A DNA stretch of 64,000 bases from Paraspadella gotoi. Taxonomy: Eukaryota; Animalia; Chaetognatha. The stretch lies in the NCBI GenBank assembly GCA_051294375.1, contig CM119263.1, forward strand, positions 10,624,703-10,688,702, in the 5' to 3' direction. Shown here piece after piece: positions 7,995-63,241 of this stretch. The stretch's first letter is position 1, and every line of letters starts with the position of its first letter. Made by a program: the position numbers and the translations under genes. The notes beneath the pieces were generated by a model. The model worked only from the letters and a program-made list of their open reading frames with translations. It made no database searches and was not told where the DNA came from.

Positions 7995-9323
7995 ATGCGA
8001 GCCTCTCTCCATCGAGAATACGGTTCTGATGAGAAGTCATTTCGACTGAAGTACCCGACATTTTTCCCCCCTTTCGCGTTGCTCATCCTCTCTCGGTGTC
8101 GCATATTTCTCGCGGTTTTGGCCGCGCTGCTTCCGGCGACCTTCTCTGCTTGCGCACCTTTCGGGGAGATGCGGTCGGACTTTGTTGGCGCCGAAAAGGT
8201 GGCGCCTTATTCAATCGGAAACGTCACATACCAGATTACCATCGGCACCGGAGGATATAAGTCTCTGGCGCTGAAAAGAATTCCAAGAGGTGAGTGANNN
8301 NNNNNNNGAAAAGAATTTCAAGAGGTGAGTGACGTCAACATGTTTAATTTTTTTTTGTTTACGGACGGACGGACGGACCTACAGACAGACAGACAGACGG
8401 ACGGACGGACGGACATCGTTATTTTTTTGCATAATTTATCATAATTCGATGGTTGGACATGATGTAAGTGACTGCCCGACAAGATTGAGGGGGCGGACCG
8501 ACGGACCGACAAAGTGAATTATAGAGTCGGAATCTGCTGATAAGCAGACCCGACTAAAAATACACTGCGCGTCCTAAACCATTTCCCTTTTGTCCAGCCG
8601 ACCGCGGTAGAGCACCTTCAGAGGGGCCACTTCGGCTGAAACTTCTTGGCCAAGAAAATCGGTCTTGCATCCTGACCATTTTAGGAATATTTCACCTCGA
8701 CACCAAAAAAGTAAGAAAAGAGGCAATACATTTTTTAACGCTCTTTTCCCCCGCGGTTCTAACTCGCCCTAATATTTAAAGACTACGAAAGCGTCTTGTC
8801 TGTATTTGGGGGACATTTCGTCGGCTATCGTGACGATGAACAGCGCGGACCTTTGGTTCTTCGAGAGCATACGAGTCTCGCGAGAGAGAAAGACAGAGGC
8901 TTTGACGGACGTGGAGGCGTGGATGGGGAAAGTCGACAGGAATCGCGGTGAGTTTGGGAAGCAAAGAGGAAAACTACAGTGTGCCCCGGGAGTGTCGACA
9001 TATAAGAGAGATCTGAACTCAACCACGGGAAATTTAATTTGCCAACTTGCTAACACGGCAAAAGGGATTTTGCACCTCTTAGTCTAACCGTTGCTTCTGA
9101 ACGTCAAAACTACCGCAATTACCTGCAGTTTACTGCAGTTATTTGGCTTGATTGTTTTAATTGGAACGGATAAAAAGTTACGTGAGATTAATAGCCATTG
9201 ACGAAATCATTTTGAAAACTTTTTTTACCGTAGATGTTCACGTTTATTCTTTTACTTTCAGATTTTTGGAAAGTCAGTGGCGGGTGGACGGAAAGCGTCA
9301 CGATAACATTTACAAGAAGCTGA
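7995..9323 (+). CDS. Secreted PLAT/LH2-domain protein; exons 7995-8289, 8598-8710, 8782-8947, 9262-9323
   Basis: GT-AG junctions are phase-consistent. Hydrophobic signal (FLAVLAALLPATFSA) followed by PLAT-like motifs YQITIGTG...LRLKLLG...LGDISSAIVTMNSADLWFFESIRV. An assembly gap lies in intron 1. Confidence 0.7.
8337..8560 (+). mobile_element. DINE-1/Helentron-like non-autonomous element with (GACG)/(GACA) microsatellite; second copy at ~55100-55248 (-)
   Basis: Internal tetranucleotide repeat and terminal hairpin AGTCGGAATCTGCTGATAAGCAGACCCGACT followed by AAAAA. A reverse-complement relative lies in a protease intron. Confidence 0.6.
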
Positions 9324-16100: not shown

Positions 16101-17327
16101 CTACGCCCACGTGATTAATTCGGGATAGCAATCTCTTTCCCCAAACCAAAAGTCTCTTAGCTTCTCGTACCACTTCGGAGGGTCATTGACTTTTCGGTGC
16201 ATATAATCGCAGAGTTTGCAGAATCCTCCCTCCAACATGCCCCCTTCTTTCGCGTCCCAGCGTTTTCTCCATTCGTGAAATTCGTTGAATCTTTTGTCAT
16301 CGATGCTCTTCAAATATTCTGCTAGTTCCTGCGGACTGAACTTCAACGCGTCGATGTAAGAACCCGGGGGCAACAAGTTATGGTAGTCCGCGCCCCCTAG
16401 CACCACCGGCACAGCCGTCGTCAACGTGAGCGTCCTCCATATCTTTGCCGAGATATATTCGTAACACAAATCGTTTTCGAACGCTAAATAAAACTTGTAG
16501 TGTCTGTTCAACATGTCGTTGCACCCGGATTCATTACGTCTCGAACACTTTTTGTCGCCGCATTTGCCGTAAACGTCGACGGGGATGTGGCGTCTGAGTT
16601 TCTCCACGTATTTATCGCGTTTGCTGACGACGTCACAATTGCTGACGAACCAAGCAGCAAGGCGAGTCTTTTGGGCGGCGTAGTTGATATTGAGTCCCGC
16701 CTCCACTCTCTTTTTTCTTATCTTATATCCATAGGGAATAGGAACGTCGCTGTCCCGTCGGTAGGTCATGGTCCAGTTGAAGACCGGACCGAAAACGTCC
16801 GTATCGAAGTTGGGCCAGCCCAAATTCAAGAAAGCCTGCGACGGAGGCTCGAGGCTGAGGAAAACCCACCGCTGACCGCGAGGTTTAAAGGGAGGAAAGT
16901 CGAAGTCTTTCACGAGCGAATCCGCGCCTTTTTTTCGTTGGATGTCTACGGGATGAAACATGACGACGTCGGCCTCTTTGAGTCGGTTTCGATCTTTCGT
17001 GATCTCGCAGCGAGATTCGTTGCAACCGTTTTTTAAAAAAGGTTGATTACCGAAACCTATGAAGTAATTGTCGCGACCCATAAACTCGGTCCACAACAAG
17101 ATGATTTTGTTTTTCGGCGGTCCTTTCGATGGCGTTGGTAGAGGCTTGGCGGATGCGACTCTTTCTTCATGGTTAACCACTCCGCCACTCGTTGCATCCG
17201 TGATGTCTTTTAAACGAAATACCCCAATTAAAACCAAAAATGTTACGATTGAAACGAGAAAGATGGCAGTTATAAGGCGCCTCCCGCGTAGAAGTCGAAC
17301 AAACATGCTGCGAAAACAATTCAACAT
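16101..17327 (-). CDS. Alpha-1,3-fucosyltransferase (GT10), intronless, type II membrane
   Basis: N-terminal TM; ILLWT, ADVVMFH, QRWVFLSLEPP, FNWTMTYRRDSDV, AAWFVSNC, YKFYLAFEN, VPVVLG motifs. Confidence 0.95.
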   Translation of the reverse strand: MLNCFRSMFVRLLRGRRLITAIFLVSIVTFLVLIGVFRLKDITDATSGGVVNHEERVASAKPLPTPSKGPPKNKIILLWTEFMGRDNYFIGFGNQPFLKNGCNESRCEITKDRNRLKEADVVMFHPVDIQRKKGADSLVKDFDFPPFKPRGQRWVFLSLEPPSQAFLNLGWPNFDTDVFGPVFNWTMTYRRDSDVPIPYGYKIRKKRVEAGLNINYAAQKTRLAAWFVSNCDVVSKRDKYVEKLRRHIPVDVYGKCGDKKCSRRNESGCNDMLNRHYKFYLAFENDLCYEYISAKIWRTLTLTTAVPVVLGGADYHNLLPPGSYIDALKFSPQELAEYLKSIDDKRFNEFHEWRKRWDAKEGGMLEGGFCKLCDYMHRKVNDPPKWYEKLRDFWFGERDCYPELITWA

Positions 17328-18838
17328 CAGCTTCTTATGATACGTTGATCTTATTGCATTCTAATTAAATATAGACAAGAGGCATTATGACTGAAGAACA
17401 ATAATTGCATGTTTCATTTATTGAGCGAAAGGGCGAAAGGCGTTAACAGGTTTGATAGATGATCGAGTCATTCCGCTGTAACTTCGAACCAGTCGTACCG
17501 GAAAAACCAGTATTTTAAAAACCTAAACAATAAAGCGTAGTATGGTGGACTAAAATCCACTAACCGTTCATCATTTTTTTACTACAAAATCTCATTAAAG
17601 TTAGCGATTTTTTTCTAAGTTGTCAACACTCGTTAAAAGAATAATTATAAAATTAAACATTATGATTATTTAATATTTTATTAAGAAAAAAGAAGTGCTC
17701 AGAAAAATAGGAAAGAAAATAGAGAGCAATTCGCCGATTACTTTTTTTTAATCCCGAGTTTAAATCATGCGATCCATTGCTGATCTACTCTGTCCGTGTT
17801 CAGAGAGAGGACGGGAAGACTAAGTCACATTCTTGTTTCAATAAAAAGTAGTGACAAAAGAATGTGTCCAATCGAAACCATAGGAGACGTCTGCAGCTTC
17901 GGCTGTAATAGAATTGGCAAACGACCTTAAGATCCGTGATCGTCCATGTGCAATTGAGTGGAGCAATTGAGAACAAAAATTTGATTTGAGTCAATTAACA
18001 ATAATAATTTTATGTGAGATGGTATGATTATTGAATATAAAATATATTTTGTTATTATTGTATCAAAATTGAAAAAAAACATATTTTAATAAAAGTTTCT
18101 TATTTTTTTCGGACAAATCTGAAACTGTTCTTAAAATTAAAAAATATTCAAAAATTATATGATTTTGTAAGGATATTACTATAAAAAAAATTCAATTTGC
18201 TCTACTGTTATGCTAAAAAATTTTTTTAAAGGGCATGGTTTTCTTTAATTACATATACATATACGGAGAAAATAAAAAAAACTATCTTACTAATCTTTTC
18301 ATCATTCAACCCTAATGTGCAATGCACAATTGCACATTGTGCAATGTGCATGTTCCTTCCTTGAAGTAATGAAAGAAATGAATTATAGTAATTTATATGT
18401 ATCTTATAATAATTAACCCAATCCTTTCTTTTTACCAGGAGCGAACGGGAAATTGCTTTCTTGCCGACGAAATTCGAAGAACGCTGTTTGCTGAAGACAA
18501 GGTGGTTGGCTCGATAAACTCGAAGTCTCCGCGATTAAATCGTCGAGAATGCAGCTGAGAATGCAACGCCAAAAACTACAAAGTTGACGGGAACTATAGA
18601 TGCGGATTAAACTACCAATAACATCCAGAAAATACCCGCGATTATCGTTTTTTAATGCTACATGTCTTTCTTAATTTGTTTTTATCATTATATGTATAAA
18701 TAACTCTCAAACCTACACTTTATAAATATACGATTTTTTATTTCATTTTATTACATTATTAACGAGAAAAGTTTATATTCCTATGAGATCCGTTCCTTTC
18801 AGTTGTCGAGGGATTGGGACGTGCGAGGTCGACTGATC

Positions 18839-21800
18839 ATGGCCGTCCAGAACCCTTCGAGCAAGCCTTCTAGACTTAGGGAGTTTCCGACGGTCTCCTC
18901 GCAATCACGCGGTACAGGTAAAAAATTATTTAAAACAAACTTGCTATTTTAATAAACGCTTCTGACCCACCTATCCCCACTTTTACCCGCTCAGCCCATA
19001 ACCCTCTCCTTCCGGTGCTGCCCCCACTGGCTCCGCGACGCGACGCCGCCTACCCGCGCGCCGTTCACAACGCCCCCTATACCGCGCTGAGGGCCACCCT
19101 CATTCACGATGACGAACCGACGCTTCTGCCGGTGACGCCGCGTTGCAGGCTTCGAACGCAGGTTGTTAGAATTTCGAGGCTGCGGATGAAATCGATCGAT
19201 GATGAAGAACGTATGATTCAGGTCGGATCGACGAACCGTTGGCGCATTCCCTCCACACTGGGTTCGGATCTTTTAGGCATCAATCAGGCGATCCGCGCAA
19301 TCAGGCGGAACGTCAGTCACTCCGTCGCCGTCCAAAGAATAGACGGTCGGGAATCGAGAACGCCGCACCGCGTCCAGGAATCGGTAGAAGTCGATATTGA
19401 ATCTAATATTTTATAAGTGTTTTATTTTTTTGCTTCGTTAATTGTTTAGGAATTGAAGAATTAATTATTTTTTTTATTTTTTTAATTTATTTATTTATTT
19501 CATTTATTTATCGATCGATTGATTTTATTGATTTATTAATTGATTAGTCTCCTCCCTCTTCGCCGCCACGTCATCCGCCGCGAACGGCGCCCGGTTCTTT
19601 GCAACTTCCCTCGATGCGAGAATCGTCAACGCCTCAGTTCACTCCCCAGCCGACTATCCAACCATTTCTTTATAAATCCGCTAAGCATGAATTCAAATTT
19701 GGTCGTCATGGCAACAAAGTCGGCACGGGTAAGACGATGATAAATATTTTATTAATTAATTCTATTTTATTAATTTTGTGAGGCCTTAAGAGAAAAAGTA
19801 ATAGGCTGAGACTCGCCCTACTTCCAGGAGTGGCCGACAACGCCCCTGCCGATGTTCTGTTGGAAAGTCTCGAAGAAGTCTGGGAGCTGCACCGTCCCTT
19901 TCTTCAAAAGTCGCAGGTGCTCTCGAAGCTGTTAAAGGCCACGGATTGGGAGCAGGAAAGAAGGTACGGCGTTGCGCATGGGGTTAATCTAGGATATTGC
20001 TAAAGACCTCTGACGTTACATAATTAATTTAATTCTAACCAATCAAGTTATGATGCGTCAACGCCCGACTTTGACCCGCTCGAGGCCGGCCGATGCGTCC
20101 GGCTACAACTGCCCGTCGACGATCATTGGATCTCCAAAAAAGCCCTCGCGGTCGCACTCAGCAAGTTGTACGAGCAAGACATGAACTTCGCGGGTAATTA
20201 AAAACATAGTCCGCGGTTGATGAGTTCTGTGATGCCACTTATACTATATAAGTTATATAGAATTTATTTTGCATCAGGAAGTGGACCGCTCGAAGCGGCG
20301 TTGGTGGTCGGAGTTCTCGGAGCTTCCATACTTCTCGATTTCGCGGATTTGTCTAATTGGTGCTTGGTTAGTTTAAGTTTAAAATAACAGTTTTTTAAAA
20401 AAATCATTCACGCGAGCAAAAAAATTGTTCTATGTTTCATCTGGTTTTTACGTAGGAGTATATGTTGGCACAGATCAAACCGTCCACCGTTTGTCAATTT
20501 CATCAAGGAGCAATCAGGTTTGTTTTTGTTTTCGGCATCGAGCTCTTTTTTCATGCGCAAGTTAAGAAATTTATTTTGGAATAAGATGAGAAATATTTAG
20601 ATTTAGGTTTACCTTGTATACAATGTACAGGTAGGTCTAGCTCTTTTGAAAATAAATTTTAAAAAATGTTTGGACATAATTATAGGAATATTAGTATGCA
20701 GGTAAAAAAAATATTAAGAGAATGTGGCGGTCGATTCACACCGTCTCACGTCCATTGGCTCAGAGGGGGAACACACCATCCCAGGCGTAGTGTTCCATCC
20801 ACAGTCCTGACGATTTCCCTCTTCGTTGGCAAAGCGAGACCGTCCTAGGGTAACCGCGCCAGTGACTGGATGCGTCACTGAGGGTCGGAAGCCCCCAAAG
20901 CCAACAGTGAGATGCCTCAACCCAGTGGGCATCACAGGCATATAACAAACTGCTTTTTTAGTGTAAGGAATTGAAGTTAGTTCCCTTAGAGCTGGACCTC
21001 CCTGTAAAATATTCATTGTATGCATAAATTGTATTCGTATCGGGTATAATTAAATTGATAAACATTATTTGCCCAGATATCGCTCAGTGACTTTGGCTAC
21101 GGCTTGCGAGCGCTGGCTCAGCCTTCATCTAGTTCCTACTCTTTCACGAAGCGTTCATATCAAACATCTTACTCCTGCAACTTTACAGGTATAATACAAT
21201 ATTTTATTTATTTATTTTAAACTGGGAATGACACTTATATGTGTCACTTTCTCAACGTTCCAAAGATGATCCTGAAAAGTCCGAAGCTTTTCGTGACGAG
21301 CGAGTGGAGAGTCTACAAGACCGTTTGCATCTGGCTGCATCTTCTTTTGAATCCTTCGCAAGACATCCTTCCTTCGTGGAAAACCGTCGTCGACTTCTTC
21401 GCCAACTTTTCCACCTCAGGCTTCTGGTCCCCTTCGCCCATCGGCACCATGTAGCGTTTTTACAACTTGAGATATAATTTTTAGAGCGAAACTTTTGTGG
21501 TAAAAAAGTACGAGTCCATATAATGCTAATATCAAGTAATGCTATTAATGCTATTAATTCTATTAATGCTATAAAGCAATTCAACTTAAATTTTCATAGC
21601 TGAGGCTCTTAACTATTCCTCCACTTGCAAAGCTCCGCCGGATCCGTCTCGCCGCCCGACGCAACCGACTCGGCTTCTGATTTGCCGCCCGGCGTCGCTA
21701 GCGCCTCCTGCATTCGCTGCAACGCGCCATCTTTTCTCGAGTCGGAAGAAGGGCAGCGATTCACGCCACTCCTACATGCCGTTCGCCTTCACGGCGTCGC

Positions 21801-24544
21801 GGGTGCTGCTAACGTCCAGGATCTTATCAGGATGAATGTGGTGCCGCAACGCTGGCTGCTGAATACGTTGCAGGGTCACTATAGGTGATTTAAACTCATT
21901 GCATTCGTTATCTTCCGGGTAAAGGACTACAAAAAAAAATAACTTCCAAATGTATATACCAGTGCGCTTCATGGCGAAGCTGTCTCATCTGCGATTGATT
22001 CCGGGAACGCCCTTGTCGACGCTGTTCGATTCGGTTTCGTCGTAAAGACGCGGTGCAGAGTCTCCGAAACTATTTTACTCCATGGATTTCATTTTGCGGT
22101 AATATGTATTAGAAAAAAATAAATAAAAGCTCGAGATATTGTACCATTTACTGTAGAATTAGAATTTAGAATTACAACGCCCATCTTTAATGAGAAAATG
22201 AACAAACGATACGCGGATAGAAAACAGAAAACAGATTTACTGTGCTCACATTACTACAGCGTAATGGCCTCGTGCAATATCCATGTTGTATGTCCATTTT
22301 AATTGAACATATTGGAATACTTAAATACGTATTACCCCTTACCACATCAATGTGATTCATCCAGTTTTCCTGCTTCGCCCGGTTCTCTTCCGTGTACGAC
22401 TGTCATTTCTATTTCGACTGCAGTAGCAATTTCAGATTCTCTGGCGCCGGTCTCTTTTTTGGCGTACGTCTCGAAGTCTTTAGCGGCGGTCGGATCTGTT
22501 CCGTCTGTCTCATTGCCGGCCTTGTCGAGGGGCTTGCGGGCTGGGGCAGCGGGGTCTGTCTGGCTCTTCCTTGACGCTCGACTTCGCTCCGCTATCTTCA
22601 AATACGCGTCATCGGGGAAGCAAAGGTCGTTGTTTTCGCAACAGGAGGCGCGGAGTTTGATCTTGAAACGCCTCGCCAAGCAGTAGGCGGCGCCGAGAGC
22701 GACGACGACGCCGGCGAAGGCTCCCATGATGCGGACCACGTGAGACGCGTCCGTCTCTTCATAGAAGCAGTTGGGGCCTGTTTGGAGGGGAGGGTTTGGG
22801 TGAGGCTTAGTTTAGAAGAGACAGAAATGACGATGCCGTGAGCAGTTCACCGTCCGTTGCACGCAAGGTCCCGAACTTCGGATTGGCCTGTAGTCCGTCA
22901 CTACAGGCGGGTTGAGCAAATGCAAGGTGGCCACCGGGAAAGAACCCTCGACCTTTGGGTTGGGAGGCGAATGACTTGCCTCCTGCACCAATGGTCCCTA
23001 ATGAACGGTTGGTGGATTTTAGTCCACCATAAATGCTTCTTTTTTTTTTCAAAGCTGACCTCTGCAACAGTGAGCTCCGCTTCCGGGGCAATTGTCTGGG
23101 CCTGGAGCGTGACCTCTGTTTATCAACCCGCGGCCCTGGCAGGCGGGAGGGAGGAGGAAGAGGACGAAGAAGGAGACGGGAAAGAGGAAATGAAAGATTG
23201 CGTGAGAAACGCGGCGAAAATATAAGGCGCGAGGCCGTTGGGGTTGCTTGAGGCCATGTTCGGTGAGTGTGCGTCGCGGGTAGCTGTTCTTGAAATCGGT
23301 AATTGGGCCGAGAGCAACGAAAGACGTTGTCAAAGTCATTTGCGACACTGCAATTATTTCGACGACGTGGATCAATACGCTGTTGCAAATCCTTTTTACG
23401 CAGGAAGAGATCCACTCGCTTTCTGCTCGGAGACGCTTTAGGGCAAAAAGAATGTGCAGTCATGTAGTTCTTATTTTGCCTTCACTCTTACGCCTTAGGT
23501 TTACAAATGAAAAATGTTTAAAAAAAGAATCTTGCCGAGCGAAAGTTTTCGACGTTTGGGAATTTTTAAAGCGGACGGGTTCTGATCAATCAGAACCAAT
23601 TAGAGTAATTTCCTGTATGGAGTTCGATTTTTTTTCAAGTCGAGTCTCTTTAACTTAGAAATGTTTTGATTATTTGTAATTATGTATTATATATTATAAT
23701 TATATTATATTATGTATTATATATTATGTATGTAATATGATTTTAGTCGTTTCACATTTTTTTCCCCCCAGGCCTCAGTTACAATAACCTTTGGTCAGTC
23801 TGTCTGTTTATTTTACTTACGTTACAAATGAACTTATTATAATCAGGTGGTAATCTGGAAACGATATAGTTTGGTGAACATCTTGCTTTTTGAACAAATT
23901 GCTTCGCTGACTCTCCGCGTTTCAAATTCTTTAGATCGTAGTGGAGCCCGCCGACGACGACGACGTTGGATGGAGCTTCATGCTGGAGCGCCTCCGCCCG
24001 TCGGAATTAGCGTTAAAGGCGCCACCGTTTTCCGCACAGCCAGTTTCTCTTCAAAATGATTGTCAACTCCAGTTTTACGTTCAGGTAATGACCACAGAAA
24101 GAAAAGTCTTGCATCGGCCGGGAATCGAACCCGGGCCGCCCGCGTACTACCGAATTCTTTCGCTGGCAGGCGAGCATTCTACCACTGAACCACCGATGCT
24201 TCGCTTAGGTATCTTGAAAATAACTGATGATGAATTATTTTTCGTTGGAAGGAGAAATTAGAAAAAGTTAATCGAATATTATTATATGTAATATATATGA
24301 AACAAGGAGCCAAAAATTATTAGTTCAATCACAGTAAGTGATAACTTTTTAAAATTTTCCGTTACTAACCCATTTCGACCCACAGGTGACCACAATGCCT
24401 TCCAAGATCCCTACGACGATCCACTCCGGTCTCCTCTCCCACGTATTCACATTGGGCGAACATCCTTCGAGGCGGCGTCGAGTCGATATGACCAATTTGC
24501 GTCTCCCCATCTACGTCATGTTTGCCATTTGCTTGCCCGACTAA
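18839..24544 (+). CDS. BTBD16: BTB/POZ domain-containing protein 16 (GCL-related BTB-BACK), multi-exon
   Basis: Exon translations GSTNRWRIPSTLGSDLLGINQ, ADVLLESLEEVWELHRPFLQKS, ACERWLSLHLVP, SPKLFVTSEW, LHAVRLHG, WSFMLERLRPSEL and terminal LPIYVMFAICLPD* resemble my recollection of vertebrate BTBD16 (GSTNRWRLP..., ADVILECLGFKWELHQP..., IPIYVSFAFIFP). Last exons are 23935-24084 and 24386-24544. Confidence 0.88.
20628..21004. mobile_element. MITE with TA TSD (Tc1/mariner-type), carrying a nested copy of the GC-rich dispersed repeat
   Basis: TA|CAGGTAGGTCTAGCTCT at 20626 and AGAGCTGGACCTCCCTG|TA ending 21006 form imperfect 17-bp TIRs. Confidence 0.7.
22347..23339 (-). CDS. Nested antisense single-pass membrane protein with short Cys-rich ectodomain; exons 23339-23060, 22777-22347
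   Basis: AGAG|GTCAGC...AAACAG|GC joins the two ORFs in frame: ...FFVLFLLPPACQG...DNCPGSGAHCCRGPNCFYEE...IMGAFAGVVVALGAAYCLARRFK. Lies in a BTBD16 intron. Confidence 0.65.
22835..22998 (-). mobile_element. tRNA-derived SINE-like element
   Basis: Head GGGACCATTGGTGCAGGAGG...GAGGGTTCTTTCCCGGTGGCC has A-box and degenerate B-box spacing typical of tRNA. Lies in the intron of the nested gene. Confidence 0.5.
24110..24199 (-). tRNA. tRNA-Gly(GCC) with 19-nt intron (24163-24145)
   Basis: GCATCGGTGGTTCAGTGGTAGAATGCTCGCCTGCCA[GCGAAAGAATTCGGTAGTA]CGCGGGCGGCCCGGGTTCGATTCCCGGCCGATGCA. The exons form a canonical invertebrate-type Gly-GCC cloverleaf, with TTTT just downstream. Confidence 0.95.
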
Positions 24545-47130: not shown

Positions 47131-47405
47131 TCGGGAGACGCCGGTTTTCTGCGGCGTCGTTGTATGCGCTTCTTCGTCGAGTGGCGCCACGAGTTAAATT
47201 TTCCTGATCGATCACGTGACTAATAATTTAGGAAGAATTTTTTTTTTTATAAGAGAAGTTACGTTAGTTTTCCGCCCCATATTTATTCTTTTATTATTCT
47301 CTTTATGCTTTTTCCAAAACGACGTGGCGCTGCCGAACATGGCTCCTTGCTCGTATTTTCTTGTATTTTTTTAACAAAAAAAATTAATAAATTTGTTAAT
47401 AAGTT

Positions 47406-48122
47406 ATGATTAAGAAAACGTCGAATTTGGGATCAAGTGGCAGATTTTTTTTTTCTTTTATAGAAAACCAATATTTCGATCTTATTTTGACAGATCATCG
47501 TTCAGGGTAAGAGTGAAGTGAGTAGAAGAAGAGAGCTAAGGAAAAGAGAGAGAGAATAGAGAGAGAGAGAGAACAGTGAGAGTCAGACAATACAACAGGG
47601 ATAAATCCCTCCACCCCCCCCCCTCGTTTCAATGTCTAGTCTCATTTCTTCCCAGGGAATTAAGGATCGGTTTCCATGCATCAGTTTTGACATAAGACCC
47701 CATATCTTTATTGAGGCCTCTGCCCGGGCCACAATCGAGGCGCTGATCCACAAGGCCTCTTCCACCTTTAGGTGGTGGCTGAGGCTGGATGGTCTTTGAT
47801 GCGTGGACGTGAGAGGATGTCCGGTGTCCAGTCGAATTGGGCTGAGCAGTGCTGACGATGCTGGGCCAGACCCGAATGGCCCCACTTTCCAGTATCCCTG
47901 TTGTATTGTCTGACTCTCACCTGTTCTCTCTCTCTCTCTATCTCTCTCTCTTTTCCTTAGCTCTCTTCTTCAACTCACTTCACTCTTACCCTGAACGATG
48001 ATCTGTCAAATAAGATCGAAATATTGGTTTTCTATAAAAGAAAAAAAAATACTGCACTTGATCCCAAATTCGACGTTTTCTTAATCATAAAATAAAACAG
48101 TGCATGTGATGACTCTACAAAC
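47406..48122 (-). mobile_element. 5'-truncated, inverted Penelope-like retroelement: inverted pLTRs flanking a GIY-YIG C-terminal fragment
   Basis: ~200-bp inverted arms at 47404-47603 and 47893-48090. The spacer encodes SSALLS..LDTGH...LKVEEALWI...NKDMG (frameshifted). Hammerhead-like motif in each arm. 13-bp direct repeat TTGTTAATAAGTT at 47393-47405 and 48123-48135. Confidence 0.8.
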
Positions 48123-50065: not shown

Positions 50066-51942
50066 ATGTCGTCTCTGCGATTGCCACTAATTTTTCTGCT
50101 GCTACTAGTCGTCGCTTGGCAACGAAGTGACGGCGTCCCGAGTGTGGACGCCCGTCAACGCGCTGTGGATGCGGTCGTCGACTTCCTGCAAAAGAGGCTG
50201 AAGGAGAAGCGGGCAGATGAATCGGAAGAAGATGAAGAAGATGAAGATGATGAATCGGATGATGAATCGGATGATGAAGGCAGTTCTGAAAGCGATGAAA
50301 AAGGGGTAAGTGGATTCTTGTTTCACAAACAAAACACGACAGAATGTTTTTGCTTAAAAAAATATTAAGTTTTTATTAAAACTAACTTTTAGAGCGTTTG
50401 AACTTTTATGATACCCGAAAATTTGCAAATATGAGTATATTACCATTGAGCTCCGTATATTTAAATAAAATTGGTACAACCAATATAAAAATTATCCATT
50501 GATTTAATAAATAAGCTATCTTGCCCCTGTAATGTAATAGATAATTCCTGGACTTTAAAAAGTGGAGGCTATATAATCGCCCACGTTTTATTTCTTAACG
50601 ATAGCAAACTGGCGAAGTGGAAAAGCGTTCGATGCTCAGTCCTGCTCAACGCAGTTTTGAAACACCAGTCCTGACCACATCGAAAATCACTAAGCAACAG
50701 AGCAGAGAAATCCTCAATCTCCACAGGTTAAAACTTGTTTTAAACGAATATTTCATATTGATATGTTTATAAATTTAATACGTTTAAATTGAAGGAAAGA
50801 AAGGCAGTTGGCGAAGGCTTCAAACATGTTGGCCATCACATGGGACGACGAACTGGCGAGGCTGGCGCAGGGACTAGCAGACGGATGCGTATTCGTACAC
50901 GACAATTTGAAGGTAAAGTCATAAATAATATATGTACTTCAGTACTTATATAGCATGAACGATACCGGTGTAAAGCTCGATATTTGAAGCTAAATAACAG
51001 TAAAAACGACGTCGACTCCTATATATATAATTATATAGATACATATGGCCCTTATATATATATTATAATAATATATGAAAACTTTTCTTAGTACCGCTTG
51101 ATAAACTCATCCAAGATCAAGTTTTGAATAAAAAAATTTCTAGAACTCGACTCCGATCTTTTTTACCTCGAGATGAGGACGGATATTTAAAATCAAACTA
51201 CTCTTCCATCACCCGCCCAACCACTTCCAGTCTTTCTTCATCCGTATCCGCAGCTCCCCAGCGGCGAGAAGGTGGGTCAGAACATTGCCGCCTGGTCAGA
51301 CCCCAACGCCTCTATCAAGTCCCTCGTCGACCTCTGGATCAACGAGAAGAACGACTATGACGTCTCGACACACACCTGCAGCGCCGTGTGCGGCCACTAC
51401 ACCCAGATGGTATGGTCAACCTCGACCAAAGTCGGCTGCGGACTGTCCAAGTGTAGTAGTCTAGGCGCTTTCCTTGTCTGCGATTACTCACCCTCGGGAA
51501 ATTGGATCGGTAAAGTCGGGAGTGGGAGGTGGGAAAGATTAAATAAAATAGACGTTCAGAATTTTATAAATCGCTTTTTTAATCAATTTCAAAAACAAAA
51601 TATAGGCGAGACTCCATTCGAACTGGGCCCTGCTTGCTCTACATGCAATCTCTACCCTGGAACCTCCTGTAATCAAGGAATGTGCAGCCCTTGCAAGCCG
51701 CGGAAGAACAAGAAAGACTGCAAAAAGTAAATAATGAAGAACTGATAATTTCAAATAATGAAAACCAAAAAAATTGGAGAGTAATGTGGCCCTTTAGATA
51801 CGATTCCAGCAAATGCTTTGACGCCAAAGTTGACCCAAAAATCACCGACTGCGAGCTCTACAAGGAATACTGCTCAATGAGGGATTACGAGCCATGGATG
51901 AAAGAAAATTGTTCCAAGACGTGCAAGTTCTGTCACTCCTGA
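50066..51942 (+). CDS. Secreted CAP/SCP (CRISP-like) protein with C-terminal ShKT domain; exons 50066-50305, 50605-50726, 50795-50912, 51254-51508, 51606-51726, 51798-51942
   Basis: Signal peptide, ILNLHRKER, ASNMLAITWDDELA, GQNIA, CGHYTQMVWSTSTKVGCG, LVCDYSPSGNWIG and the ShK pattern C...C...C...WMKENCSKTCKFC. Confidence 0.93.
50465..50529 (-). mobile_element. Short 3'-end fragment of the 324-bp repeat family
   Basis: AAATTGGTACAACCAATATAAAAATTATCCATT...AAGCTATCTTGCCCCTG matches the reverse complement of the unit end. Confidence 0.8.
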
Positions 51943-52351
51943 GCCATGGACCGTGAGAGCTGCATGCTGACCGCGCAAAAGCAATCGCGTTCGAATGAAG
52001 GGCCATTGCGAAAAAAAGTATAATCTTGCTAACCTCGAAATCTTAAAATGTTTATCTAGCTATTATTTGATAATAGGCTGTATTCATACTTATAATCTAA
52101 TATTTCTAATTCTGCTTAGTTAAACTGTAAAAATCTAGTCTTATTAATCAACTTATTTTACGAGATTCGTAAAACTCATAATCTATGAATTTAAATAAAA
52201 TTTAAAAAAAAACGAATTGTATTGCTTGGTTTTTTATTTGTTGAAGGTCAACATTTACTGATTGAGAATTTTCTGAAAACATTCATGCTAAGAGACATGC
52301 CTGAATTAAACATACGAAATTTGGAGTTGAATAAATAAAGAATGCGAGAGA

Positions 52352-53110
52352 CGAGCAGCGCAAAAAAAAAGTAGCCACTTTTTCATGTGGATGGCTGAAT
52401 TTCACCGAGACATAGATATATAAATCAAAGCTTGTTGAAATATGAAGTGATTGGTCCAAGTCCTATTAAAATCGAGCAAAGCGTTCGAAAATTATAGGAC
52501 GCCAAAGTTGATTGGGACAAAAGATCTGACAAGAAAGAATTAATTTTAGTCAAGAAGAGTCTATGACTTTTCATTATAATAAAATATTTATTAGAAAAGT
52601 TTGAAATNNNNNNNNNNGTAGGGATAGGTGTCAACCATTTTAACCAAAATTAAATTTAAATAAATAGGGAAACTATATAAAAAAATCTTACCTAAGATTA
52701 CTTACAAAGCTTTTCCATATCTAAGTTTTTTCATTTTGTCATCTTGGTTGAAGTATGCTCATAGAAACTCTTAAAAATATATTAAAACTAAATTATTTAT
52801 ATTTTGTCAAAGAATTACTTTTTGATTTTAATATAATTTAAAAAAAAAGATTGTTTTCGGTATTTATCATTAAAGTATTATAAGTTATTGCCAACCCTTT
52901 CATATTTTTAATTCCATTGTGATTATCTCAATTCTATATTGTTACCATCAGTCAGAAAAAGAATTATCATTAACTTGACATCCGAGAATTACTTTTTCCC
53001 AATTCCATTTTGAGACTCTTGACTGTAACATATTGCTATATTCTACTTAAATTTTTTTTTAGACTAATCCATACCTAACAAGTGGCTACTTTTTTTCCCG
53101 CCGCAGTGTA
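52352..53110. mobile_element. Degenerate TIR element spanning the assembly gap
   Basis: AAAAAAAGTAGCCACTT (~52364-52380) is the reverse complement of AAGTGGCTACTTTTTTT (~53079-53096). The right end is ...CCGCAGTG|TA. Confidence 0.45.
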
Positions 53111-53225
53111 CCAAGGTAAAAAAGATCGGAATGTCCTCACAAGTCGACCCGCTAAATCGACGAATGGACGTAACAGAATAAGTATGAAAATATCCAAGGA
53201 AAAACCGAAATGGTTGCCCGCCATC

Positions 53226-56200
53226 TCAAACGGCGCCTAGTATGGCGCCTAACGGGTTGCCAACGACGACCATCGCCGCGATCGCAGCCACCTCGCTCGC
53301 GAACATCGGCGTCGAGGCTAAAGAAATCCGCGACGACGGCAAATCTACATGGTGACAATTTTACAAGCGCCGGTAAAAAAACGCTGTCATTTGCAAACCA
53401 GTCGTTATTTCATTGATTTTAAAAATTAGTTGAGTAGAAAATATTAAAGTCATTTAAAGTAAAAAAAAACGAATTGTATTGCTTGGTTTTGTATTTGTTG
53501 AAGGTCAACATTAACGGATTGAGAATTTTCTGAAAACATTCATGCTAAGAGACTAAATTTTATATTAATCAGTTAAGATATGCCTTGACAGTGAGTGGAG
53601 AAAGTTGGCTTGTAAAATCGGGTTTTATTTTTTAACTCACTATTAAATTCAATTCATTTTTTTTTTCAACTTTTAGCACTTTTTTAAACAAAGTATTTAT
53701 TAAAATATTAATAATATTAAAATCCTCAGAAAGCCCTTAAAAAAATGAAGAGAATGATATACTTACGAAAGCTCTATCATAAAAATTAAGCTGAATAGTC
53801 TTGGTTCAATTAAGAGAGTTAAAAGTTAATTATCTAAAATTTTAAATCTTTTTTTAAAATATATAACCTGTTTAACTTATTATAACATAAAATATTATTA
53901 TTTATATAAGTATCATGAAAGAGCCTGAAAAAAAGAGCTATAAGATAGCCAATCACAATTTGATAAAAATCCTAAATTTACCCTCCAGCTTTTGATTTTT
54001 TTAAAAATGTTTTGTTTTTGAGTATCCTAATTAAATTAAAGCTGGGCCGGTAAAATTTTATACTACAGTATTTGTAAGTATGTCATTCTCTTTAGATTTG
54101 AAAGGGCTTTCAGAAGATAATAATATTAATATTATGAAATTGGTACAACCAATATAAAAATTATCCATTCATTTAATAAATAAGCTATCTTACCCCTGAC
54201 TTTGGACAGGCTTTGGTGGTTTAAGGCCTCCATCACTCTTACAAGATAATGACATAGCAGGTCCCTAAAAGCTTTCAATCAAGACTCTCTCACAGTCTCG
54301 TTTATTCACTCCCAGAGTACCTGGCTTCCCTATCAATTTTATTTCAAATTTCTTCAGAAAACCTACTGAAAGTAAGAGAAAAAAATTGAATCTAAAAAAA
54401 GTTAGTTGAAAAATGAAACCCGATTTTACAAGCCAACTTTCTCCACTCATTGTCAAGGCATACCCTAACTGATCAATATAAAATTTGAACACATAAATGA
54501 CTTTAATATTTTTTATTCATCTAATTTTTAAAATCAATGAAATAACAACTGGTTTGTAAACGACAGCGTTTTTTTTACCGGCGCTTGTAAAATTGTCACC
54601 ATGTAAGCCGCGATCCTCTTCCGATTCGATCCAAGGGACGTACTCCGAAACGCGAGAGTAGACTCCGGGAAGCAACTCCGCGGCGCAACCGACGCCCCAA
54701 CTGACCACGCCGACCAGAACGGCGGTATTGTCGTCCAGGTGGAAGAGCGGACCTCCGGAGTCTCCGACGCAACCGTCAATGCCACCGGCCGCGTAGCTAG
54801 ATAGGCGGGGTCGTGAGGGAGATCGGGAAAGGATGACGGGAGGAACGAAAATGAGTTAGAAGATTGCCATCACGGGCGACTCGGCAGTTGCCATAATGGT
54901 CGAAAAACGGGAAGCCGAAAAAAAACGAAAAGAGAGGGCGATTGGAGGAGGTCCAACCTTTTTTTTTTTTTAACAAATCTGAATGTTTACCCTGCACACA
55001 TCATTTCGTTCGAGACTTGTCCATAAGCTTTCAGCAATTCTTGACAACTTTTGAGACCAACGAGAGGCACCGTTGCCATCTGCAAATATTTTTTTACGTT
55101 TTTAGCCGGATCTGCTGTAAGCCGATTCCGGCTCTATAATTCACTTTGTTGGTCCGTCGGTCCGCCCCCCTAATCATGTCGGGCAGTCACTTATTAATGA
55201 TTAATTATGCAAAAAAAATGATGTCCATTCGTCCGTCCATCCCACCTTAGCAAAAAACAATTACTCGTGATTTGATGCTTAGATTGGAATAAAATTTTGT
55301 GTGTGGGTAGGAAAGTGTGTGATTGAGCTGGAAATCAAGTTTCGATGGAATCGTTTGAGTGGAAATAAGTTAAAATGGAAAAAACAAACAATCTATTTCA
55401 TTATGTGATTATGTTTTTTTATGTTTATGTTAAATGTAAATTTAAGCTGCAATAATTAATTATTAATAAAAAAATAATTAATTAATAATTATTTAATAAA
55501 TAAATAAATTAATTAATTAATAAATTATCTGATCGGCTCCTTACCGCTAAGGATCGTGGGCAGATCCGGCATTGTTTGCTCAAACTTTTTTTTTTTCGTA
55601 CAACTTCTGTTGAAGTGCGCTCACATTCTCGGACGGATCCCTCCTTTCCTCCAGCCTCCCACTCTCTCAGCTCTTTTTCGATCCAGCTCACCTTCTCCTT
55701 TCCCGCTCCGCACCTGCAGCTCGGTCGGCAACTTTTGTTCCTCGAAGTTAACGTATCCATTCCCGATGACGACGAGCTTCGTTCCCTCGACCAGAGCCTG
55801 CTCGTGAGCTGCGGGTGGAAGGCAAGCAGGCTGCACCCGCGAGTTGAAAACGAAAGGGCGGTTGACGAGCAGGACGGCAATGTCGTTGCGGTTCGCCATG
55901 TCGCAAGCGCCGTTATGCGCTGCGCCCGAGGAGCAGAAGCGCGGATGTTGCCGCGACGAAACAACGCGGCGGATCTGAGCGCCGCAGTAGTCGGTGGAAG
56001 AGCGCATGACTAGAGAAATGCATGTGATTTAAAAAGTGGAGGGATAGGGGCTTAATCGAAAGAGAGTGAACGCTAAATCAAGACGTCCACCGAAAATGTA
56101 GTCTTCACGCGAAGTGTTTTTCACAGGACATCGCAAATCATCCAAACCTCTTACCGATTTTTTGCGGGGCAGTGGTTCCGGCGAACACGAGTTTGCCCAT

Positions 56201-56463
56201 TCGATCCCCGCTGTACTTGAGACAGTGTGCCGCCGTGACGAGCGTATTGGGGTCGACAATGGTGGCGCCGCAGCCTCCGATGTCAACGAACCACGGAGCT
56301 TCGCCTTGGCGGACAGACCGACCGCCGACCACATCGGAGGAGTGTAAATCTCTTGGATGAATTTATTAAGACCGTGAGACAATGGATACATGAGTGGAAG
56401 AAAAATGGAAAGGAAAGGAAAGGAAAGGAAAGGAAAGGAAAGGAAGGAAGGAGGAAAGAAAAG

Positions 56464-57741: not shown

Positions 57742-58430
57742 ATGGAAAAAAATCTCAACCTGCTCGTTCCCCTTGATCAAAGCGAAACAAAAAGCAAAAC
57801 GAACAAGAAAAGATATAAACCTCGAAAATATTTTTCGATTCCCAAATTCGCCAAACCGGAGCAAGATAATTATGTCGGACATTCAAACTGCAGGTTTGAA
57901 TATTGATTAAGTCTCCACTTGGACTCTCGTCGTTTTCTTTTTAATATATATTTATTTCAATCTATGAGTGTTTTTGATTACAGATTCCACTACGGTCTAT
58001 CCCCTGTGGATTTAGTTCGGGCGTCGCGACAGTACATGTACGACGTAGAAGGGAACGAGTTTCTGGACTGCGTCTCTATCCAGGCCCCCGCCGGCCATTG
58101 CCACCCGCAAATCGTCATGGCCGCCCAGAACCAAATGGCCACCCTCGCCGCCTCCTTCGGCTTCATGCACAAACTCCTCCCCGAATTCTCCAAGAAGATC
58201 GTCGAGACTCTCCCGCCTCAACTCTCTATCGCCTACTTGGTAATTTATGTCGATTGATTGATTGATTGGTAAAATTTTGAATTTTTTCACTTCTTATATT
58301 AGCAACAACGTATAGAAATTTCATTACGCCCAAAAAAACAAAAAAACAAAAACAGTAAAAAAAATTTAATAATTTTTGTTTTTAAAACTACTTTAACACT
58401 AATCAGTAATCACCCCTTTTTGAAACAAAT

Positions 58431-58513
<83 letters not shown>

Positions 58514-61121
58514 GTGTGTGTGTGTTTCGATTTTTTCCTTTTGCCCCCAGGTTAATTCGGGCTCTGAGGCAAATGACCTCGCCCTTCGCCTCGCCGGATG
58601 CTATACCCAGGCTAGTGACGTGATTTGTCAGGAAGGTTCTTATCACGGAAACACCTATGCAACTGTGGCTGTCTCTGCAAAAACCTTCAAGAAAAAATTG
58701 GGTAAATTTCGAAAGATCCTAAAACGTTTTTTGTACGAAAAAAAAGGGGAAAAGAGAGAAATAATTATTTAAAACTGATCTCTAAAATTACATTTCTATA
58801 TATCTATATACCTATCATACCTAGGCAGAGCAAAGCACGTCCACGTCCTACCCTTTCCCGACACTTACCGCAATCCCGAGGTTCGCGACGCCGAAGAGAT
58901 GACCGCCCGGGCAACAGCCTTTGTCGATTTGCTCGCCCAGGATCCCGACTCTCGAATTTCTGCCTTCATTTCCGAGAGCACTATGACTCACGCCGGAATG
59001 ACTGACCCTCCGACGGGCTACTTAAAAGCCGTCTACGATTCAGTTCGTCGTGCAGGTGGAGTCTGCATCGCCGACGAAGTTCAGGTGCTTTTTTAATAGG
59101 TTCCACAATCGTTATCGATGAACTAATCGGGCTCCATAATTGTGTTTTTGATCTTTCCGTAGACTGGGCTAGGCCGCGTTGGTGAGACGCTCTGGGCTTT
59201 CCAACAGCACGACGTTGTTCCGGACATCGTGACAATAGGCAAGCCACTCGGCAACGGTCAGCCAGTAGCGGCCGTCATCACGACTCCCGCAATTTCCGAG
59301 GTCTGCCCTGAGTTCTCATCAACGTTTGGCGGGAATCCCGTCAGTTGCGCCGTCGGTCTTATGTTGTTTAAAGTCATCAAAGACGAGAAGCTTTTAGCGT
59401 CCTCGACTCGGGTAAGCTTACCTGTCACATGATGATTTTTTCCTGAAAGTTCTGTTTAAGTACTTTGGATGGATAGATGTATATCCGAAAACTTAATTTT
59501 GTTTTGATTTATAAAATAACCTGACCGCCCCCTCCCAAAATGAACCTGTGGCTGCGCCAATACATGTATATCGCTTTCAAGGGCTTAAACCGAACTGTTA
59601 CTGAAGTGTTACTGCGGCACGAATAACATTTTGGTACTTGCAAAAATATTTTATAAATCAAAACAATATTATATTTGTTTGGATATATGATTAAAATGCT
59701 TTGATCACGACATAGAATAAGAAAGAGAATTAAATGAAATAGAATTTTAAAAAATATCTAAAACATTTTTATAAGATTTAATATAATTAAAATTGAAAAC
59801 TTTTATAATACTTAATAATAATACTTAAACTAAATTCTATTATTATTTTGTTTTGAAAATTGCTCTTTTATTTGAATAGCCATCTGGTTTATTAAGACTA
59901 ATATATATATATATATTGGTTGTACCAATTTCATAAAATTCAGCTCCTTGTATTTTGATGCTAGTGCGGAGTACAATAAGTATTCCCCGATCTAATACTT
60001 AAGGGAGTGGTCTTTTCTTACAATTGAAACATTCTTTGAAATATTTTCCACTTCATTGATAGGGAAGCCAGGTACTCTGGGAGTGAATAAACGGGACTGT
60101 GAGAGAGTCTTGATTGAAAGCTTGCAGGGACCTGCTATGTAATTATCTTGTAAGAGTGATGGAGGCCTTAAACCACCAAAGCCTGTCCAAAGTCAGGGGC
60201 AAGATAGCTTATTTATTAAATGAATGGATAATTTTTATATTGGTTGTACCAATTTCATAAAATTCAGCTCCTTGTATTTTGATGCTAGTGCGGAGTACAA
60301 TAAGTATTCCCCGATCTAATACTTAAGGGAGTGGTCTTTTCTTACAATTGAAACATTCTTTGAAATATTTTCCACTTCATTGATAGGGAAGCCAGGTACT
60401 CTGGGAGTGAATAAACGGGACTGTGAGAGAGTCTTGATTGAAAGCTTGCAGGGACCTGCTATGTAATTATCTTGTAAGAGTGATGGAGGCCTTAAACCAC
60501 CAAAGCCTGTCCAAAGTCAGGGGCAAGATAGCTTATTTATTAAATGAATGGATAATTTTTATATTGGTTGTACCAATTTCATATATAAATTAGCTATATT
60601 GTGTAAAGCAATGCAAGTGAAGATCTTGTGGGTCCAAACAGAAACTCATAAAACTTTTTTCTACCCCCAAGGTGGGAAACAGACTTAAGGATTTACTCCT
60701 CGAATTGAAGCGTCGACGGCGAAACCTAGGCGACGTGAGGGGGCGTGGCCTCGCCATTGGCGTGGAAATAGTAGAGGATGAAATCTCCAAAAAACCCGCT
60801 AGTCGATTGGCCGAAGAAATCGTGTATCGAATGAAGGAAAGAAGAGTCCTCGTCGGTCTCAGCGGAATTCACAACAACGTCGTCACTGCCACGCCTCCTC
60901 TCTGCTTTACTCTCGATAACGCCAGGGACTTTGCCAAGGCGATGGACGACGCATTGGGTGCGTCGGAAGCCTTCGCGGATGGGCAAGGCGTCGCTGACGA
61001 CGACAACGATGATGCCGTTTCGTCCTCTTCTGAAGAAGAAGAGAAGGACGACAACGACAACGACGACGAGACGAGACCTCGTCAAAAACGACAAAAAGTT
61101 AACTATTCTGACATGGATTAG
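57742..61121 (+). CDS. Class III PLP enzyme, ETNPPL/PHYKPL (AGXT2L) family; exons 57742-57893, 57984-58239, 58551-58701, 58825-59084, 59163-59411, 60672-61121
   Basis: GHCHPQIV, VNSGSEANDLALRLA, SYHGNT, GGVCIADEVQTGLGRVG, DIVTIGKPLGNG (PLP lysine), STFGGNPVSCAVGL and GDVRGRGL. Confidence 0.93.
59912..60583 (+). mobile_element. Head-to-tail dimer (2 x 324 bp plus ~24 bp) of the 324-bp repeat family
   Basis: TTGGTTGTACC recurs at 59916, 60240 and 60564 (period 324). The two units appear identical. Lies in an ETNPPL-like intron next to (TA)n. Confidence 0.95.
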
Positions 61122-61540
61122 ACTAGACTATGAGACCGATGAACGATAATTTAATAGATGTACGTAAGTCAATCATTTCGATTGATTTAGGCTAACGATC
61201 CAAATGATTGAGGTGACTGCCGAAGTTACCTCGAAATAATTATTATTTTTCTTTTCAATCATGATTGTGTAATTTTTCGAGGTTTTTACCTCGTTAAATA
61301 TCACTCGTTAGTCTAATTGGGTTGCTTTCGTTGAAAATAACAAGGCTTTCATTAAATTTTTATTTATCGTCATTGATTTCGATAATCCTTAGTAAAGTTA
61401 AGTGTTTTTACGACATTGTGACCGATCTCATTTTTGTACTTTGCAATTCATGTTGATTTATATTATGAAACCCCGAAAATTTTGTTTTAATTTTTCTACA
61501 GTTTCGCGATTACCTTGTCAATAACAAACATTACGCGAAA

Positions 61541-63241
61541 ATGGAAGCGAATTCTTTCATGGAAGATCCTCTGTCCCTTCGAAAAATCCTTGAACAGAGC
61601 AAATGTTTGCCCCAGGGTTGGTCCGTTCAGTTTTCCTCCGATGTAACTCTGGCTTTCGTACACAGCACGGTCGATTTCAACGCCAAACAGTTCCAATCGG
61701 ATCGAGCAATATTCATTCGGCCCAACAATAAGTCTGTATACGACGTGGAGATGGTCTTTCCTTTGGACGACAAGCAGACCGTCAGCTTAAAGTGTCAGCG
61801 AAACCTACGCACAGCTGAACAGGCGAGAGATTTACTAGTCGAGATGACAAGTTACGAAGTCCCGCAGGTTCAGAAATCAAACGCGGACCAGAAATCGAGG
61901 GTCACTTCCCCCGAAAATAAGCGCGTCACCGAATCCGCGATCATTCAGTCGTCGAAGCTGATTCAATCACTCGCTGTTCCGGTAGCGGAGGCAGAATCGC
62001 GATCAATGGAAGGAAAATCGAGCGAAACCTCGCGCAGTAATAGCTTCCATTACGGTGACCTGGGAAGAGTCAATTTTAAAGCCGCCAACTTGATCGAGGC
62101 GAATCGAATTCCAAAGCATCAATCAGAAATGATGCAAGAAAGTAAAGTATTGAGATGCACCGTATGCTCGACTAGTTTTACGACTGAGAAGCTTCTGGAG
62201 GATCATCTCCAGTCGAGCCACACCAAGGACGATTTCCGGAGGCATCAGAATAACATGGCGGTCTTTCGGTACAGGATGAGAAAAGTAATGCAGGAAACGT
62301 CTTTGAAGGAAGAATTGGATAAAGAATCGAAGCGGAACGTAGAGTTGAAAGCAGAAGTCAGGATCTTGGAGGAGTCTATCGAGTATTTTAGAAAAGGATT
62401 GCTGCAGAGCAATGGGAAGGCTCCTACCCAGACGTTAAGCCCATATTACAGTCAGATTGCGACCCCATCTTCGAGTCGAAAAACAAGCCCACCTTCCAGT
62501 CATTCGTCGAGCCCTTCTTCCAGTGGGCCGGCGAGCCCACCTTCTAGTCAGCCAACTAGTCAACTCCAACTCTTCGAAACCACAAGAGAAAACAATCTTA
62601 AGAAAAATTCTGCGAATTTTCACCAATCTATTGGCGCTCAATTTTATTCTCAGATGTTTCCATTAAATTATGATATTCAGAATGAGCCGACTAATTTAAG
62701 CATGGGAAAAAAAAGCCAGAGTGGCACAAATTATCAGTGTCATAACGGGATGGAAGTTCAGAAGATAACACGTGATCTCTATCCTTTGTTAGATGATAAG
62801 AAAAAGGTCACAAAGTCACAAGGTCTCACAAATTCTTTGACAGAAGAACAGAAAAGATTGGACGGTGAGATAGTGTCGCAGGATTTTAGAAATCTTCGTG
62901 GGGAAGTACAGAAAAGGTGGCAAGATTTTTCAAATCACAGTTTGAAAGATGGAGAAGTGTCTCAAGATCTCACTCACGATCTCAGCGAAGCTGAACGGCG
63001 CGCCTCGTTGCTCGATCTACGCAAATCGATAATGAGTTTGCCATCGACGTTTCCACAAAGTCAACTTCTGTCTTCGGTTACAACTGCTCCAACTTCTGAT
63101 ACTCAAACTGTCGATCCTTCTTATCGCAAACGGTCGATACAAAAAGTAGAGTCTTTTAATGAACCTAATTATTTTTCGGGAGAGAAAACCCAGAAACATC
63201 TACCGTTCACAAAACGAGCAAGGTTTTTGTATAGTTTTTAG
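61541..63241 (+). CDS. Single-exon 566-aa protein with one C2H2 zinc finger fused to a C/EBP/PAR-like bZIP
   Basis: CTVCSTSFTTEKLLEDHLQSSH followed by FRRHQNNMAVFRYRMRK and heptads L..ESKRNVELKAEVRILEESIEYFRKGL. Confidence 0.75.
   Translation: MEANSFMEDPLSLRKILEQSKCLPQGWSVQFSSDVTLAFVHSTVDFNAKQFQSDRAIFIRPNNKSVYDVEMVFPLDDKQTVSLKCQRNLRTAEQARDLLVEMTSYEVPQVQKSNADQKSRVTSPENKRVTESAIIQSSKLIQSLAVPVAEAESRSMEGKSSETSRSNSFHYGDLGRVNFKAANLIEANRIPKHQSEMMQESKVLRCTVCSTSFTTEKLLEDHLQSSHTKDDFRRHQNNMAVFRYRMRKVMQETSLKEELDKESKRNVELKAEVRILEESIEYFRKGLLQSNGKAPTQTLSPYYSQIATPSSSRKTSPPSSHSSSPSSSGPASPPSSQPTSQLQLFETTRENNLKKNSANFHQSIGAQFYSQMFPLNYDIQNEPTNLSMGKKSQSGTNYQCHNGMEVQKITRDLYPLLDDKKKVTKSQGLTNSLTEEQKRLDGEIVSQDFRNLRGEVQKRWQDFSNHSLKDGEVSQDLTHDLSEAERRASLLDLRKSIMSLPSTFPQSQLLSSVTTAPTSDTQTVDPSYRKRSIQKVESFNEPNYFSGEKTQKHLPFTKRARFLYSF

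Follow-up and report, generated by a model that had tools for sequence, protein, structure and literature searches.

The 2022 survey (Gozashti 2022, PMC9860276) defined introner families by a minimum of four similar introns in non-paralogous genes and detected them in no more than two animal groups, and single introns derived from transposable elements are known from many eukaryotes (review PMC11282704). In design, the described family most like the locus reported here is Mariner (TcMar-Fot1-like) introner family 1 of Colletotrichum scovillei (Gozashti 2025, PMC12130899, supplementary file 8 row 200), which is a terminal inverted repeat (TIR) element of kilobase size (~1.9 kb) with a 2-bp TA duplication, a carried 5' splice site, a co-opted 3' site and GT..AG ends. 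That family is from a fungus, includes transposase domains and has four introns annotated, whereas the element described below sits in an animal gene, has no transposase frame and was seen as one intron; the likeness is one of design. None of the eight rows containing the word Mariner in supplementary file 8 of PMC12130899 is from an animal. In worms and human cells, exonic DNA transposons are subject to a different process, SOS splicing. The authors of PMC12779559 ascribe those splices that are GU-AG and independent of AKAP-17 to the spliceosome, and they speculate that sites for the spliceosome may reside in TIRs.

In this work, a window of 64 kb (the whole stretch of DNA that was analysed) was found to contain an animal protease gene with a genuine intron born of a transposon, backed by an RNA contig. 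New introns in animals are seldom found with their cause still in place, and introners are rarely reported in animals; here every base of the new intron could be assigned and the mRNA junction was seen, in an apparently well-covered and intact gene. The preferred reading, to which we give a probability of about 86%, is that the inserted element is removed between the GT of its own TIR and an AG made by its target duplication and the host, likely by the spliceosome, and serves as the last intron of the gene.

The gene lies on the minus strand, has six exons and encodes a trypsin-like protease product of 358 residues with intact triad motifs. By profile match, the His, Asp and Ser motifs fell inside a Pfam Trypsin domain, as in S1A trypsin-like enzymes. 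The gene features were as follows.

Near 56900, minus strand: putative 5' end of the transcript; a model starting from 56900 gives 1,322 nt, the exact length of RNA contig 25.
56680 to 56858, minus strand: exon 1, placed by the same model, with the ATG at 56858, a hydrophobic N-terminus and a propeptide that is alignable with homologues.
56155 to 56351, minus strand: exon 2, with the VVGG start of the mature chain and the catalytic His; RNA joint 56009>56155; Pfam Trypsin.
55714 to 56009, minus strand: exon 3, with the catalytic Asp; RNA joints; Pfam Trypsin.
54991 to 55079, minus strand: exon 4; RNA joints 54796>54991 and 55079>55714.
54600 to 54796, minus strand: exon 5, with the catalytic Ser in GDSGG; RNA contig piece 54600 to 54796; Pfam Trypsin.
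53345 to 54599, minus strand: the transposon-born intron, 1,255 nt, GT..AG, running from TIR position 5 through the second TA and one host G; RNA joint 53344>54600.
53023 to 53344, minus strand: exon 6, with the remaining C-terminal tail, the stop codon at 53226 to 53228 and the 3' UTR; RNA contig piece 53023 to 53344.

In the mature chain, VVGG was preceded by Asp and not by Arg or Lys (56320 to 56345), a trait common to close homologues and hinting at an unusual activation route. The initial annotation had compared the enzyme with prostasin/testisin-type proteases; the closest relatives found were unnamed proteins that are neither prostasin nor testisin. The neighbours of the gene in the window (16101 to 17360, 50600 to 51730 and 57900 to 61120) were a single-exon fucosyltransferase gene and a CAP/SCP gene, both recognised by Pfam, and an aminotransferase-like gene assigned from its reading frames. 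A paired-class homeobox gene elsewhere in the window points to an animal source, and an open frame of 590 codons with weak bZIP and C2H2 Pfam matches (61469 to 63241) is possibly a mobile-element or regulatory gene. Two assembly gaps of 10 N each were located at 8298 to 8307 and at 52608 to 52617, the latter about 400 bp beyond the 3' end of the protease gene.

The last coding exon of the protease is interrupted by a TIR element with a TA duplication, as the initial annotation had proposed, and recomputation of the coordinates and arms gave the same result. The parts of the element were assigned as follows.

53348 to 54603, no strand assigned: non-autonomous TIR DNA element of 1,256 bp, with a longest stop-free frame of 83 codons.
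54604 to 54605, no strand assigned: TA target duplication, copy retained in exon 5.
53346 to 53347, no strand assigned: the other copy of the TA duplication; its A and the host G at 53345 form the acceptor AG.
54494 to 54603, minus strand: 5' TIR arm on the gene strand, with the donor GT at 54599 to 54598.
53348 to 53456, minus strand: 3' TIR arm, with a candidate branch motif CTAAT from 53429.
54128 to 54337, no strand assigned: nested copy of another high-copy repeat, with 96-97% copies at 60055 to 60264, 60379 to 60590 and 2051 to 2254 and very high contig depth.
53460 to 53553, no strand assigned: the second nested insert, confined to the 3' arm, with a 97% copy at 52203 to 52296.

The GC content of the element was 28%, against 62-63% in the adjoining exon parts. 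The outer 36 nt of the TIRs, including the TA, were 100% complementary, the 110-bp arms were 93.6% identical (self-BLAST E-value 2e-41), and more arm blocks were found inward. The diverged arms and nested insertions described before were both recovered, and copies of the two inserts were located elsewhere in the window. A 15-nt TIR motif occurred twice in the window against 0.24 expected, and at least two occurrences were obtained in 3 of 100 shuffles; the element itself is present in one copy within the 64 kb. Other copies of the family diverged from the window sequence at 53456 and then matched the opposite arm. Removal of both TA copies or of neither (1,260 or 1,256 nt, against 1,255 nt) would shift the reading frame, which identifies the TA as a target duplication. 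A TA target duplication together with TIRs is a feature of Tc1/mariner elements. Some elements outside this superfamily also make TA duplications.

Several other repeats were observed in the window. A repeat of about 370 bp with a very high copy number was found at 59888 to 60590, 1876 to 2260, 54128 to 54337 and 50459 to 50529, being in tandem at 59888 to 60583 and partly nested in the element. A second TIR element with 201-bp arms (96.5% identical) was located at 47404 to 48090. At 17541 to 23031, two inverted copies of a 31-bp repeat (97%), each with TA on its outer side, stand 5.5 kb apart with gene-like frames between them; GT occurs near their ends, without a TA-G flank. The pair may be one large TA-type element or just two fragments of repeats. 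The end sequences of the 13 inverted-repeat pairs listed for the window gave no sign of another TIR element that forms an intron.

When the element and one TA were removed, the reconstructed empty site gave an open frame to the stop codon at 53226 to 53228, in agreement with the in-frame reading predicted by the initial annotation. The last letters of exon 5 are the first TA copy followed by the initial 4 nt of the TIR, and all 1,255 nt of the intron consist of the element, the duplicated TA and one host G; the intron was therefore made by the transposon. Two other origins were tried and ruled out: insertion into a pre-existing intron, since no intron sequence is left over, and insertion at a stop codon, since the TAG is off-frame.

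Eleven matching sequencing runs were listed, comprising eight DNA-type runs of one organism (five samples, two studies), run X9 and two runs of other organisms; eight of the eleven were aligned to the window. X9 (sample S6, study P3) is from the same organism as the DNA runs and from a third study; its RNA status is a guess, supported by four spliced introns and by RNA-only A>G/T>C changes, and it was analysed at contig level. Contig 25 of X9 (1,322 nt, depth 749.7) skips 56010 to 56154, 55080 to 55713, 54797 to 54990 and 53345 to 54599, all as GT..AG on the gene strand. The last skip is 1,255 nt (CT..AC on the plus strand), compared with 1,258 nt for an empty allele. Beyond 53345, the loose end of the contig reads as the sequence from 54601 on, so three TIR-derived bases are present in the mRNA. 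Excision of 53345 to 54599 keeps the frame open and adds a single His. The donor 4 nt inside the TIR, the acceptor composed of TA and G, the extra His and the junction letters had all been predicted from the sequence, and each was matched by contig 25 of X9, which showed exactly this skip and the additional 3 nt. The element is thus absent from the mRNA exactly between GT and AG, likely via ordinary splicing.

The same contig could in principle come from an animal carrying a DNA allele from which the element had been excised, or the new intron lost, with the 3-nt addition left behind and no splicing at this site, as RNA sample S6 (study P3) differs from every DNA sample. This explanation was judged extremely improbable. 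The skipped stretch is GT..AG to the base, no such joint was listed in DNA runs X4, X5 and X7, and loss of the intron would itself need earlier splicing. Footprints of Tc1/mariner elements usually retain both TA copies, whereas the contig keeps one.

Some features of the splice sites tell against the preferred reading: the donor had a weak consensus match beyond the GT, the acceptor had little pyrimidine tract, and in the predicted fold a long TIR stem contains the donor and has the acceptor at its base, a prediction that carries no shuffle control at this length. No further AG occurred between 53385 and the acceptor. Such a stem, containing the donor, is what SOS splicing would use, in which a TIR hairpin triggers removal by AKAP17A, CAAP1 and RTCB independently of the spliceosome; contig 25 would then be the dominant in-frame product surviving NMD, from this route or from a hybrid one, with GT..AG ends by chance. 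The arms offered a further parallel. At 12 listed variant sites between 53381 and 53426 in family-wide contigs, eight showed changes at 3.6-29% in X9 and at no more than 0.5% in X1 and X8, all of them A>G or T>C. This RNA-only pattern looks like A-to-I editing of family hairpins, with DNA runs, and not the DNA of the X9 animal, as the reference; the signal is pooled over the copies of the family and is not specific to this locus. However, SOS splicing cuts at multiple sites that are rarely GU-AG (PMC12779559), and the one junction listed here is exactly GT..AG, albeit in contigs, which hide minor forms. Based on this single exact junction, removal by the spliceosome was favoured over SOS splicing, which we consider very unlikely, and over the excised DNA allele, which is less likely still.

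Taken with the preferred reading of spliceosomal removal, retention of the intron could still have a role. The initial annotation had suggested a switch between anchored and secreted forms, in which retention, or polyadenylation inside the element, would give a tail-less secreted protease in addition to the spliced form. Its statement that the retained-intron reading ends within the element was correct, with a stop after 28 codons.

54512 to 54519, minus strand: stop codon inside the element that closes the retained-intron reading; an AATAAA, a possible intronic poly(A) signal, overlaps it.

The motif AATAAA is present five times on the gene strand of this AT-rich element. Depth told against a large contribution of such a form: the spliced contig explained 749.7 of the 753.2 depth units over exon 5 and all of the listed depth over the tail, which leaves 3.5 units over exon 5 unassigned, and no retention contig was among those listed, although contigs may drop rare or tissue-specific forms. 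The switch is thus unsupported so far, and we regard it as having little chance of being real.

The origin of the C-terminal tail was also considered. Its GC3 was 0.74, compared with 0.67-0.74 in the catalytic exons, and the mean hydropathy of its last 20 residues was 1.99 (1.9 for the N-terminus). The best three homologues, P0122 to P0124 (40-45% identity), share the propeptide and the unusual activation site of the protease, and each has a polar linker of variable length followed by a terminal hydrophobic stretch with a mean hydropathy of 1.2-1.9. As these three are also tailed, the interrupted hydrophobic tail is likely ancestral, judging from sequence comparison. The search with exon 5 returned generic trypsins only, and a similar hydrophobic tail at a similar distance occurred in 4 of 120 matches, which indicated that the tail is not a general trypsin feature. 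An origin of the tail as exonised UTR was ruled out by its GC3 of 0.74 and by the tails of the homologues. A word-based homologue search with exon 3 gave no match, and P0124 used as a query against metagenome contigs gave no locus. GPI signals combine an N-terminal signal peptide, a small omega residue 20-30 residues from the end, a spacer and a terminal hydrophobic stretch (features as given in PMC2571997); by a hand check, Ala329 or Ser327 fit the omega spacing, and a role of the tail as a GPI signal, and not just as a simple membrane anchor, is plausible. The inserted His would be tolerated on account of the variable linker length among homologues.

From these data the following course of events is proposed. 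A non-autonomous, TA-targeting DNA transposon would have inserted in the last coding exon of the trypsin-like protease gene, and its transcript would be cut between the GT of its own terminal repeat and the AG supplied by the duplicated TA and the next host G. With the spliceosome as the likely cutter, the element would now be the last intron of the gene. The insertion may have survived owing to the position of the His, in a linker that varies in length, and to the preservation of the likely ancestral hydrophobic tail, plausibly a GPI signal.

The DNA runs were used to evaluate the frequency and age of the insertion. Run X4 spans the 53347/53348 junction under the 31-letter rule. Below this rule, X4, X5 and X7 enter the TIR by 26 letters from the exon 5 side (54603) with no other letters, and X1 enters the element by 22 letters from the tail side (53348). 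Neither a joint nor a loose end of an empty site was among those listed for X1, X4, X5, X7 and X8, with X8 having no cover there; an empty allele or a minor isoform may lie among the joints and loose ends outside that listing. Since no empty-site form was listed and the RNA animal of another study carries the additional 3 nt, we infer that the insertion allele is common or fixed in the species. An intronless orthologue was sought in organism B (X10); nothing matched at 80% likeness, which does not prove that it is absent there, and the records of the homologues give no gene structure. At 3 of the 12 listed sites, the 3' arm carried a letter other than that of most family contigs; together with the two nested inserts, this suggests that the insertion is not recent. 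Contig depth over the tail region (53050 to 53345) was 9.1 in X4 and 8.1 in X5, compared with 15-22 upstream, and X7 and X8 had no cover; such thin cover could hide a tail-less haplotype, but the records are filtered, so holes in them prove nothing.

The element belongs to a mobile family. The TIR end with its TA was joined to foreign flanks at 53344 to 53346 in at least 62 contigs of X1 and at least 37 of X8 (five further X8 contigs ending at 53349 were excluded from the count), and the donor lies inside the conserved TIR; a multi-copy mobile family that carries or co-opts splice sites is a feature of introners. Summed TIR depth was about 470,000 against 82 in X1 and 26,000 against about 10 in X8; this does not measure copy number but hints that it is high. 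An exact 23-nt TIR pattern had 0 matches in metagenome contigs. Among the listed contigs, TA followed by G flanked the family in 14 of 62 (X1), 10 of 37 (X8) and 5 of 9 (X9 RNA), compared with 13.8% of all TA sites across the window. One-sided P was 0.04, 0.03 and 0.004 respectively, but a strict X1 count was 9 of 57 (P = 0.39), and the samples share copies.

The geometry of such insertions was also computed. Because the TIRs are symmetric, a donor is supplied in either orientation, and insertion at any sense-strand TA-G, in either orientation, adds 3 nt in frame. Depending on the frame, the outcome is a His, or Thr followed by Cys, Trp or a stop, or read-through at a TAG stop; a new stop arises only if AGA follows an in-frame T. 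In the coding sequence of the protease, 5 of 23 TA sites qualify, none of them with a new stop. If 10-20% of the genome is taken to be coding, roughly 0.7-1.5% of random insertions would be expected to fit this geometry, which makes 4-7 per 500 copies before selection acts. This geometry makes the family a candidate introner and predicts further introns. Whether it amounts to an animal introner, that is, a high-copy TA-targeting family making in-frame +3 introns at almost any sense TA-G, with several to dozens already made in this genome, we regard as tentative, the chances falling somewhat below even. If true, copies of graded age, the old ones fixed and the young ones polymorphic, would make it possible to test spliceosomal intronisation against SOS splicing on edited TIR hairpins.

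Peptide layout and intron design can both be placed beside known systems. Like prostasin-like GPI-anchored S1A proteases, the product has a signal-peptide-like N-terminus, a trypsin domain, a polar linker and a terminal hydrophobic stretch; the likeness is one of layout, as its closest matches are unnamed proteins with a distinct propeptide in common. A literature search made without the organism name found no paper on this element, a result from which absence from print is not claimed. Long introns derived from transposable elements have been described in animal hosts in family 1 of Strongylocentrotus purpuratus and families 1 and 3 of Styela clava, as here, but according to the entries in PMC12130899 those families are non-LTR, hAT (8-bp duplication) and LTR elements with both sites co-opted and several of them non-canonical, unlike the present intron. 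The SOS splicing of Tc1, Tc3, Tc4 and HSMAR2 (Zhao 2025, PMC12779559) resembles this locus in the loss of an exonic TIR transposon from animal mRNA, in TIR pairing and in A-to-I editing of TIRs, whereas its sites, as presented there, are multiple, rarely GU-AG and often out of frame, in contrast to the single in-frame GT..AG junction observed here. The locus looks like a natural case of a TIR carrying a spliceosomal site. Introners in general, as characterised in PMC9860276 and, for Micromonas IE1, in PMC11282704, share with it a carried donor, an acceptor taken from the duplication or the neighbouring exon, a codon added to the mRNA and a GC content below that of exons, although their median family lengths of 30-654 nt (PMC9860276) are shorter than the 1,255 nt found here. 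The mechanism is already described in fungi and algae, and this animal locus works like an introner insertion.
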